IMG/VR virus record: IMGVR_UViG_2778261167_000005
Span: 1-29,475 of that record
Source of the DNA: a virus
Lineage: Duplodnaviria; Heunggongvirae; Uroviricota; Caudoviricetes
Strand: one strand, 5' to 3'
Length of the DNA: 29,475 bases
Under the pieces are notes generated by a model. It searched no databases, had not been told where the DNA came from, and saw only the letters and a program-made list of their open reading frames with translations. A program made the translations under genes and the position numbers. Below, piece by piece: positions 18,404 through 19,651 of this stretch (position 1 is its first letter; the number at the start of each line of letters is the position of its first letter).

Positions 18404-18682
18404 ATGACCAGAATGAGCACCATTTACAGCAGACTTTCATATGGATCAGGAACCACGCTTGCCGGCTGCGGTGTATCAGCGAAGGCATATGCCGAAACAG
18501 CTAAAACAGCAAAAGAGGTGTCCTGGATGTTGGCCGACAGAATTGCAGGGTTAAGCCTGAGCGACTGGGCAATTATTGTCGGTATCACATGCACCGTTAT
18601 TACCTGTGCAGTGAACTGGTATTTCCGCTGGAAAGAACGGGAGGATAGGCGCAATGGCTATGCCACCAAAGCTGAAGAATAA
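18404..18682 (+). CDS. Holin, pinholin-like (phage 21 S21 family resemblance)
   Basis: N-terminus MTRM (two Met separated by a basic residue, like the lambda S dual start); TM segment WAIIVGITCTVITCAVNWYF; C-terminal ...REDRRNG... resembles S21; immediately upstream of a SAR endolysin. Confidence 0.6.
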   Translation: MTRMSTIYSRLSYGSGTTLAGCGVSAKAYAETAKTAKEVSWMLADRIAGLSLSDWAIIVGITCTVITCAVNWYFRWKEREDRRNGYATKAEE

Positions 18683-19199
18683 ACTGAGTGCAACGGTCGT
18701 TGGGTTAATTCTTGCCGGGGCTTCCGCACCCGTGATTCTCGATCAGTTTCTGGATGAGAAAGAGGGTAACAGCACAACAGCGTACAAGGACGGCTCTGGT
18801 ATATGGACCATTTGTCGTGGCGTCACGATGGTTGACGGCAAGCCAGTAGTTCAGGGCATGAAGCTGTCTGCTGAGAAATGTTCCAAGGTGAACGCCATAG
18901 AACGCGACAAGGCTCTGGCATGGGTTGAGCGAAACATCAAGGTGCCACTGACCGAACCACAGAAAGCTGGGATCGCATCTTTCTGCCCTTATAACATCGG
19001 CCCCGGAAAATGTTTCCCGTCTACGTTCTATAAGCGAATAAATGCTGGCGACCGTAAAGGAGCCTGTGAAGCGATCCGCTGGTGGATTAAAGACGGTGGC
19101 CGTGACTGTCGTCTGACCAAAGGGCAGAAGAATGGTTGTTATGGGCAGGTAGAGCGACGGGACCAGGAAAGCGCGATGACGTGCTGGGGGTTGGATTAA
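18654..19199 (+). CDS. SAR endolysin (T4-lysozyme-like, GH24) with N-terminal signal-anchor-release domain
   Basis: Hydrophobic Gly/Ala-rich N-terminus LSATVVGLILAGASAPVIL; catalytic E-x8-D-x5-T (EGNSTTAYKDGSGIWT). Confidence 0.8.
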   Translation: MAMPPKLKNKLSATVVGLILAGASAPVILDQFLDEKEGNSTTAYKDGSGIWTICRGVTMVDGKPVVQGMKLSAEKCSKVNAIERDKALAWVERNIKVPLTEPQKAGIASFCPYNIGPGKCFPSTFYKRINAGDRKGACEAIRWWIKDGGRDCRLTKGQKNGCYGQVERRDQESAMTCWGLD

Positions 19200-19651
19200 T
19201 GACCTTCAAAGCGTGGTTGATACTCGCCATTGAGATTCTTTTGTCGTTGCTGGTTATCTTCATCCTCTACGGACAGGTCAGTAAAGAGGCGAAGCGCGCC
19301 GATGATGCCGAGTCACTGGCTAAGCGGCAGCAGGAAACAATTGACGATATGACAGTGCGTCAGCGTGATGTTGTCGCACTAGATGTTAAATACAGCGGAG
19401 AACTGGCATATGCCAAAGCCACTATCGATCAGCTTGAGCGCGATGTTGCTACTGGCAAGCGTCGGCTGCAGCTCAACGCCAAGTGCGCCACGAACGGAGC
19501 GACCAGCACCTCCGGCTTGGATGATGCTGCCAGCCCCCGACTTACTGACGCCGCTGAACGGGATTATTTCACCCTCAGAGAGCGAATCGAAACCAGCGGG
19601 AGAATGATTGCCGGGTTGCAGAACTACATTCGTAAGATTTGTGTTAGATAA
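19199..19651 (+). CDS. Spanin inner-membrane subunit Rz (i-spanin)
   Basis: N-terminal TM, coiled-coil periplasmic domain; start overlaps the endolysin stop; contains an embedded +1-frame Rz1. Confidence 0.75.
   Translation: MTFKAWLILAIEILLSLLVIFILYGQVSKEAKRADDAESLAKRQQETIDDMTVRQRDVVALDVKYSGELAYAKATIDQLERDVATGKRRLQLNAKCATNGATSTSGLDDAASPRLTDAAERDYFTLRERIETSGRMIAGLQNYIRKICVR
19410..19607 (+). CDS. Spanin outer-membrane lipoprotein Rz1 (o-spanin), embedded within Rz
   Basis: Signal peptide with lipobox-like SVGC, proline-rich mature part; PPAWMMLPAPDLLTPLNGIISPSE closely resembles lambda Rz1. Confidence 0.75.
   Translation: MPKPLSISLSAMLLLASVGCSSTPSAPRTERPAPPAWMMLPAPDLLTPLNGIISPSESESKPAGE

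Follow-up and report, generated by a model that had tools for sequence, protein, structure and literature searches.

The closest described counterpart of the genes considered here is the lysis system S-R-Rz/Rz1 of phage 21 (OL657228; PDB 3HDE/3HDF), in whose record (OL657228) a dual start gives S21-71, annotated as antipinholin, and S21-68, annotated as pinholin. We have compared with it a four-gene lysis cassette (holin, endolysin, Rz and Rz1) at 18404-19651 on the plus strand of a stretch of tailed-phage DNA of 29,475 nucleotides (nt), IMG/VR record IMGVR_UViG_2778261167_000005, referred to in its full length as the window. The two systems share the gene order, an embedded spanin gene, a dual-start motif of the holin with Met1 and Met4, an endolysin triad of the form E-x8-D-x5-T and an endolysin N-terminus resembling a signal-anchor-release (SAR) segment, and the second transmembrane domain (TMD2) and REDRR tail of phage 21 S are homologous to those of the holin here. 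They differ in that S21 is 71 amino acids (aa) long whereas the holin here has 92 aa with an insertion of ~20 residues, and in that the endolysin here is of another SAR subtype, the R type of Shiga toxin (Stx) phages, and its gene overlaps the holin gene by 29 nt. The locus is very likely the late-operon lysis cassette of a lambdoid prophage, with Citrobacter as the most likely host, that would work like S-R-Rz/Rz1 of phage 21.

The holin belongs to a subfamily that is also present in coliphages mEp237 and HK225, in Klebsiella phage Mulock and in prophages of Citrobacter, Klebsiella, Kluyvera and Symbiopectobacterium; mEp237 in addition carries the same endolysin subtype as the window. Public records of mEp237-type modules annotate the holin, the lysozyme or SAR endolysin and the spanin, and the mEp237 and Mulock annotations give a single holin start. 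Copies 97-99% identical in amino acid sequence to the holin here, from IMG/VR and from Citrobacter pasteurii, are abundant in public data and already annotated as holin/lysozyme/spanin, and the cassette is an ordinary example of the well-known phage-21-type lysis system. No experimental study of the mEp237/HK225-type holin came to light in literature searches, and no paper in the library searched deals with the insertion in its TMD1 equivalent.

Two further systems bear on the comparison. Hol of Haemophilus phage HP1 is paired with a SAR endolysin and kills without release of beta-galactosidase, and prediction of its TMD1 is ambiguous (PMC7312051). HP1 Hol/Lys is the namesake of PF16080, the best-scoring Pfam family for the holin in the window; it differs in that hol lacks a dual start, the Pfam match is limited to residues 41-79 of the holin here, and HP1 is a P2-like myovirus of another host. 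With S105/S107 of phage lambda the holin shares the dual-start logic, the extra positive charge in the antiholin and an sdi-like RNA structure at the Shine-Dalgarno sequence (SD), whereas lambda S is not related to it, being a class I holin with three TMDs and large holes that starts at Met1/Met3, and lambda R is a soluble transglycosylase and not a SAR lysozyme.

Layout of the Cassette

The genes and products of the cassette are as follows.

18404-18682, plus strand: holin gene, 92 aa, the long product from Met1 (MTRM...), candidate antiholin form with an extra R3 charge
18413-18682, plus strand: short holin product, 89 aa from Met4 (MSTIYS...), candidate active holin
18654-19199, plus strand: endolysin gene, 181 aa, glycoside hydrolase family 24 / T4-lysozyme fold
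19199-19651, plus strand: Rz i-spanin gene, 150 aa
19383-19607, plus strand: open reading frame (ORF) of the Rz1 o-spanin, probable start 19410, a lipoprotein of 65 aa inside Rz

An earlier note on this DNA had claimed a complete lysis cassette at 18404-19651, and both the claim and these coordinates are borne out. Each of the four genes matched its family in Pfam far beyond chance, and PHROGs agrees. NCBIfam held no matching model for the holin or Rz1; homologues of the holin are named 'HP1 family phage holin' at NCBI. The matches were:

Holin: PF16080 (HP1 holin), 43.1 bits, E 4e-11, cut-off 28.8, residues 41-79
Holin: PF04971 (P21 holin S), 30.2 bits, E 5e-07, cut-off 26, only residues 38-80
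Endolysin: PF00959 (phage lysozyme), 84.5 bits, E 1e-23
Rz: PF03245, 122.7 bits, E 1e-35
Rz1: PF06085, 57.1 bits, E 2e-15
PHROGs, agreeing with Pfam: holin phrog_20 (3e-20), Rz phrog_13 (1e-46), Rz1 phrog_3198

The overlap of the endolysin and holin genes (29 nt) and that of the endolysin TAA with the Rz ATG as TAATG are compact and typical of lambdoid lysis cassettes.

Two Candidate Holin Starts Behind a Conserved Hairpin

The motif M-x-[KR]-M opens the holin throughout the family. ATG stands at both Met positions, 1 and 4, in 128 of the 129 related loci, the lone exception being a truncated pseudogene. Residue 2 is variable (T, A, V, N or K), and only K or R occurs at residue 3. From the GGAGG at 18392-18396 there are 7 nt to AUG1 and 16 nt to AUG4, a spacing found again in phage 21 S (GGAGG-CGUUGCU-AUGAAAUCAAUG), and this GGAGG is contained in an RNA hairpin:

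18376-18398, plus strand: CGCC.AUCCGA-AAAA-UCGGAGGUG, the 3' arm containing the SD GGAGG

The hairpin has a minimum free energy of -12.5 kcal/mol (z = -2.3), and its stem has a second GAGG (18398-18401) at the base. In 32 distinct homologous leaders 93.9% of hairpin cells were paired, as against 40-53% in slid controls; from one homologue to another the loop differs in sequence and in length but the complementarity of the arms is kept, and the non-coding 5' arm is conserved where its surroundings are not. Three pairs were changed on both sides, for example from G-C to C-G in Symbiopectobacterium. Three double-changed pairs were also reached by 27 of 500 shuffles, and the support from covariation is modest because the 3' arm is constrained in any case as SD. 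The same two-tier hairpin is folded around the SD of phage 21 S.

With the Met1/Met4 register, the SD geometry and the hairpin all like those of phage 21, the analogue of MTRM is therefore MKSM of S21. The earlier note had likened MTRM to the MKM start of lambda S; the dual-start motif that it saw is present and conserved, and it is the choice of analogue that has to be changed, from MKM (Met1/Met3) to MKSM (Met1/Met4). Antiholin action is generally attributed to the additional positive charge at the N-terminus (PMC9636201), and by analogy with phage 21 we infer that both starts would be used and that the long form would serve as antiholin.

Other start assignments were considered. A GTG at 18347, which would give an ORF of 111 aa and is used in some gene calls, for example P0003 and P0052, was rejected, as the region upstream of the hairpin is variable with indels among homologues and GGAGG is placed for the ATG at 18404. 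A homologue called with a single start, P0041 ('MNTIYS'), encodes MTRMNTIYS in its DNA, and its call is an artefact of a degraded upstream SD. P0043 is likewise called as starting 'MNTIYS'; the check at the DNA level covered P0041.

A single start, with Met4 a mere conserved internal residue or with only Met4 used, and with timing set without an antiholin, seems unlikely to us. In its favour, conservation extends over all of the first 30 residues, so that an invariant Met4 is not special by itself, and HP1 Hol, of the best-matching Pfam family, has no dual start (PMC7312051). What speaks for two starts is that residue 2 varies while residue 3 stays K/R and both Met codons are kept, and that the SD spacing and SD-occluding hairpin copy those of phage 21, whose dual start is experimentally established (PMC9636201).

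Relationship of the Holin to S21 and Its Membrane Topology

For comparison with S21 we used a query sequence verified as 100% identical to that in the phage 21 record OL657228. In an hhalign comparison, profiles of 36 members of the holin subfamily and 32 relatives of S21 aligned over residues 1-78, interrupted by a single large gap, with a probability of 90% (E 1.5e-6). This alignment puts Met1 and Met4 of the two proteins in register and places SRLSYGSGT of the holin on TGIAYGTSAG of S21; the insertion of ~20 residues follows, after which VSWMLADRIAGLSLSDWAIIV of the holin pairs with a further stretch of S21. An alignment to S21, which the earlier note had suggested as a check, thus succeeds over the full length at the level of profiles, while direct BLASTP is limited to TMD2 and the tail. 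From this sequence comparison the holin is a relative of S21 with an interrupted TMD1 equivalent.

The holin has a strong TMD at about residues 52-74 (Kyte-Doolittle mean 1.86 for 52-70), a weakly hydrophobic segment rich in G/S/T/A spanning about residues 11-30, and a charged tail, RWKEREDRR.... Residues 1-30 and 41-85 are highly conserved and 31-40 form a variable linker, which in the window holds a tandem repeat:

18495-18514, plus strand: 9-bp unit in 2.2 tandem copies, coding for TAK-TAK of the linker (found with TRF)

Homologues with one TAK copy have 89 aa (the majority), those with two have 92 aa (as here) and one with three (P0004) has 95 aa, which looks like a slippage polymorphism inside the coding region. 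In TMD2, which is 3 residues shorter than that of S21, A56xxxG60xxxT64xxxC68 stands where S21 reportedly has a stripe of small residues, G40xxxS44xxxG48; among homologues A56, G60 and T64 are invariant and C68 is nearly so.

Several results weigh against so close a likeness to S21. BLASTP of the holin with S21 gave 37% identity over 38 aa, confined to TMD2 and the charged tail, and the insertion, which carries K27, E31, K34, K37 and E38, splits the TMD1 equivalent, so that the topology of the holin is uncertain. The segment at 11-29, the candidate TMD1, is even less hydrophobic than the proven TMD1 of S21, with a Kyte-Doolittle mean of 0.41 compared with 0.64 and, on a summed Hessa-type scale, 9.4 compared with 6.4. 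The AlphaFold2 model has a mean predicted local distance difference test (pLDDT) score of 59.6 and gives a confident helix for TMD2 only; its pLDDT falls below 50 at residues 1-34, and it is therefore uninformative on TMD1. A scan of the hydrophobic moment of the holin gave nothing decisive. With one strong and one weak hydrophobic segment, the helices number one or two and never more; the earlier note would have given up its pinholin proposal for a holin with more than two TM helices and no similarity to pinholins, and what was found is at most two hydrophobic segments in a protein related to S21 and HP1 Hol.

A rival reading is a holin with one TMD, in which the N-terminal ~50 residues never insert but form a soluble or interfacial regulatory domain, and to which the 'TMD1 exit' of S21 would not apply. 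Only residues 52-74 are clearly hydrophobic, 35-53 contain K, E, D and R, the insertion breaks the equivalent of S21 TMD1, and HP1 Hol too is called one-TMD by several predictors (PMC7312051). Yet TMD1 of S21 is itself barely hydrophobic (0.64) and similarly rich in G/A/S/T (a fraction of 0.60, compared with 0.65 in residues 11-29 here), the first 30 residues include no acidic one and are strongly conserved, and a dual-start motif that depends on K/R is most sensible if the N-terminus must cross the membrane. On balance we regard a holin with a single TMD as improbable, although not remotely so. A more elaborate proposal, which we hold to be decidedly doubtful, is that the subfamily of 89-95 aa might be a natural derivative of S21 in which a variable insertion with repeats has divided the self-inhibitory, SAR-like TMD1 and the N-terminal ~50 residues would act as a non-membrane or transiently inserted regulator, giving a one-TMD pinholin with dual-start charge control and a trigger unlike the 'TMD1 exit' of S21.

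Endolysin Partners and Probable Pinholin Function

The partners of the holin were surveyed in 130 related loci, drawn from IMG/VR and from one genome per species. All ~120 intact downstream endolysins have a hydrophobic, SAR-like N-terminus, and no soluble endolysin was found among them. They fall into four subtypes: the type in the window, an R21-like type, a type like P1 Lyz with a Cys in the SAR segment, and a fourth at locus L116. In Stx phages, for example PA21, an endolysin of the present subtype (~80% aa identity) follows a 71-aa S21-like holin; the same endolysin subtype thus stands behind both holins, and the two holins are therefore natural alternatives before the same SAR enzyme. 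S21 and HP1 Hol, the representatives of the two families that the holin matches, both behave as pinholins (PMC9636201; PMC7312051). These findings support the view that the holin would work like a pinholin, the size of its holes being judged from homology and partners.

SAR endolysins can also pair with holins that are not pinholins, which counts the other way and makes co-occurrence suggestive only. The holin could be a canonical large-hole holin that merely stands beside SAR endolysins, with the endolysin able to pass through its holes. Hole size is unreadable from sequence, and some SAR endolysins are paired with holins unproven as pinholins, for instance in P1 (PMC7312051). We nevertheless consider a large-hole holin very unlikely, given its homology to S21 and HP1 Hol, both non-permissive for large proteins, the shuffling of four endolysin subtypes with no soluble partner in ~120 loci, and its interchangeability with S21-like holins before the same endolysin subtype.

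The Endolysin

The endolysin aligns from its N-terminus with R21 (PDB 3HDE, E 3e-19; 3HDF) and RrrD (4ZPU). Its triad, E37-x8-D46-x5-T52 (nt 18762-18809), falls on E35/D44/T50 of R21, and the catalytic Glu lies 8 residues past the hydrophobic stretch, as in R21. The SAR-like segment, residues 11-29 (nt 18684-18740; LSATVVGLILAGASAPVIL), is uncharged, has G/A/S/T at 10 of its 19 positions and no Cys, and its Kyte-Doolittle mean of 2.07 is close to that of the R21 SAR (2.11). The T4-lysozyme catalytic triad claimed in the earlier note is therefore present, in agreement with the PF00959 match of 84.5 bits, and its SAR N-terminus holds at the level of sequence, in an uncharged segment of 19 residues and an R21 alignment that runs through the SAR region. 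As the segment contains no Cys, its regulation would be of the R21 type and not of the P1 Lyz type. We infer from these features that the segment would stay uncleaved and be released on depolarisation.

Cleavage by signal peptidase is unlikely because of the length of the segment, the Pro after ASA and the homology to R21. An ordinary cleavable Sec signal peptide, cut for example after AGA23 or ASA25, is accordingly a highly improbable alternative: the n-region KLKNK is signal-peptide-like and small residues occur at AGA and ASA, but the uncharged 19-residue stretch runs on beyond these AXA motifs (...ASAPVIL), a Pro, which at +1 blocks signal peptidase I, stands directly after ASA, the R21 alignment covers the SAR region with Glu placed as in R21, and the subtype is paired only with pinholin-type holins, here and in Stx phages.

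The SD of the endolysin gene, GGAGG at 18640-18644, lies inside the EREDRR codons of the holin and 9 nt before 18654. The alignment with residue 1 of R21 points to Met3 (18660) as the start, but this was rejected because homologues often lack Met3 (MAI, MAV, MPV, MAS), while Met1 is kept in them, and because of the GGAGG 9 nt before 18654.

Some nine codons at the start of the endolysin gene (MAMPPKLKN, window 18654-18682) overlap the 3' end of the holin gene and are common to two SAR subtypes (loci L004-L111), which diverge directly past the holin stop codon. A recurrent recombination junction is marked by this pattern.

The Spanins

Residues 5-23 of Rz form an N-terminal TMD (Kyte-Doolittle mean 2.87), and the protein also has a coiled-coil region in the periplasm. 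It shares 47% identity with phage 21 Rz, and its C96 and C148 align with the two conserved cysteines there. Rz1 lies wholly inside Rz in the +1 frame, (19410-19199) mod 3 being 1. Its start is most likely 19410, where GGAG (19397-19400) stands 9 nt upstream and from where, at residue 10 of the 74-aa ORF, the phrog_3198 match begins. The signal peptide MPKPLSISLSAMLLLASVG ends in ...LLLASVG before the lipobox Cys20 (19467-19469), the +2 residue is Ser, and the mature part is proline-rich. With lambda Rz1 the identity is 55% (55 residues compared) and with phage 21 Rz1 it is 53%; it is strongest in PPAW.M.P.PD..TPLNGIISPSE. The earlier note had placed Rz1 in the +1 frame within Rz, which fits its position at 19410-19607 within 19199-19651, and had called its C-terminal peptide close to that of lambda Rz1, which agrees with the 55% identity and the stretch ...PPAW.M.P.PD..TPLNGIISPSE within it.

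Lambda spanins reportedly form intermolecular disulfides through C99/C152 of Rz and C29 of Rz1. The mature Rz1 here (19467-19604) contains only the lipidated Cys, and none equivalent to C29 of lambda/21 Rz1; any covalent homodimerisation that is needed would depend on the Rz cysteines alone.

Prophage Context

The order NinG-Q-(leader)-lysis-TerS-TerL-portal is lambdoid, and RecT and a RecE-like gene lie between the integrase and NinG. The features upstream of the cassette are:

463-607: ryeA/ryeB small RNA (sRNA) genes, SraC/RyeA 177 bits and SdsR/RyeB 116 bits, an overlapping chromosomal pair
681-1766, minus strand: lambda-type integrase
16179-16796: NinG, upstream of Q
17043-17867, plus strand: Q-type late antiterminator, PF03589, 153.8 bits
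17952-18289, plus strand: two terminator-like hairpins, a small ORF and an isrI-like match of the 540-bp leader between Q and the holin gene
17952-17979 and 18266-18289, plus strand: the two terminator-like hairpins
18061-18249, plus strand: small leader ORF, 62 aa, phrog_1856, unknown function

The closest relatives are phages mEp237 and HK225, with 90-93% nt identity over the holin gene and, in mEp237, also over the endolysin gene. The mEp237 match stops where Rz begins, and the spanin module therefore comes from another lineage. The best match in an E. coli genome reaches only ~91%, and the best species-level match to the holin is from Citrobacter pasteurii, at 99% aa identity; the host of the prophage is probably Citrobacter. 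The ryeA/ryeB pair directly adjoins the integrase gene, from which it appears that the prophage has inserted beside this locus.

In the leader, the first hairpin (17952-17979) is strong, with 11 bp and TTGCTTTATA after it, and lies 85 nt past the stop codon of Q. A short transcript from the late promoter might end there, which makes the hairpin a candidate for a tR'-type terminator; a simple scan identified no promoter or Q-binding element. An Rfam match to isrI (RF01392, a Salmonella Hfq-binding sRNA) at 18157-18253 on the plus strand (57.6 bits, gathering cut-off 45) overlaps the 3' half of the 62-aa phrog_1856 ORF, and the hairpin at 18266-18289 comes next.

Between Rz and TerS is a low-GC insert at 19650-21250 (38-42% GC, compared with ~51% in the cassette), in the position where lambda and phage 21 have bor. 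Its minus-strand ORFs at 19690-20202 and 20737-21207 had no match in Pfam, PHROG or PADLOC, and its plus-strand ORF at about 20422-20649 corresponds to phrog_18074, a family of unknown function.

Symbiopectobacterium purcellii and Symbiopectobacterium sp. RP (loci L113-L133) carry many copies of the holin gene, several of them truncated, with at least 10 holin matches in S. purcellii MEX. These numbers suggest prophage proliferation and decay. In some of the Symbiopectobacterium copies the SD hairpin is shortened and without its inner stem.

Proposed Mechanism

The following course of lysis can be envisaged. From the gene order, the Q antiterminator would allow late transcription to pass the two terminator-like hairpins into the cassette. 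On the holin mRNA one GGAGG would serve the in-frame starts Met1 and Met4, and the conserved hairpin, by partly sequestering it, would probably set the ratio of the products, as in S21 and at lambda sdi. The short product of 89 aa would be the lethal holin, and the 92-aa product with its extra R3 charge may act as a weak antiholin by slowing the exit of the N-terminal G/S/T-rich segment from the membrane. The endolysin, judged by its homology to R21, would be exported by Sec and held tethered and inactive by its uncharged SAR segment. At the programmed time the single strongly hydrophobic helix of the holin would oligomerise into small holes, so that the proton-motive force collapses; the SAR endolysin would then be released and refold with E37/D46/T52 active, and murein would be degraded. 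Finally, as the family membership of Rz and Rz1 suggests, their complex would fuse or disrupt the outer membrane.

Significance

The value of these results lies mainly in correct annotation, as they add one more lambdoid prophage with a phage-21-type lysis system. A dual-start motif like that of S21, together with the SD-occluding hairpin, is conserved in a widespread subfamily, and yet the mEp237 and Mulock annotations give one start. The only mildly unusual feature of the cassette is the insertion within the holin's TMD1 equivalent; it offers a natural variant that may be used for probing the control of triggering by TMD1. That this holin is strictly paired with SAR endolysins, of four subtypes, represents a functional linkage that has been kept through mosaic exchange.

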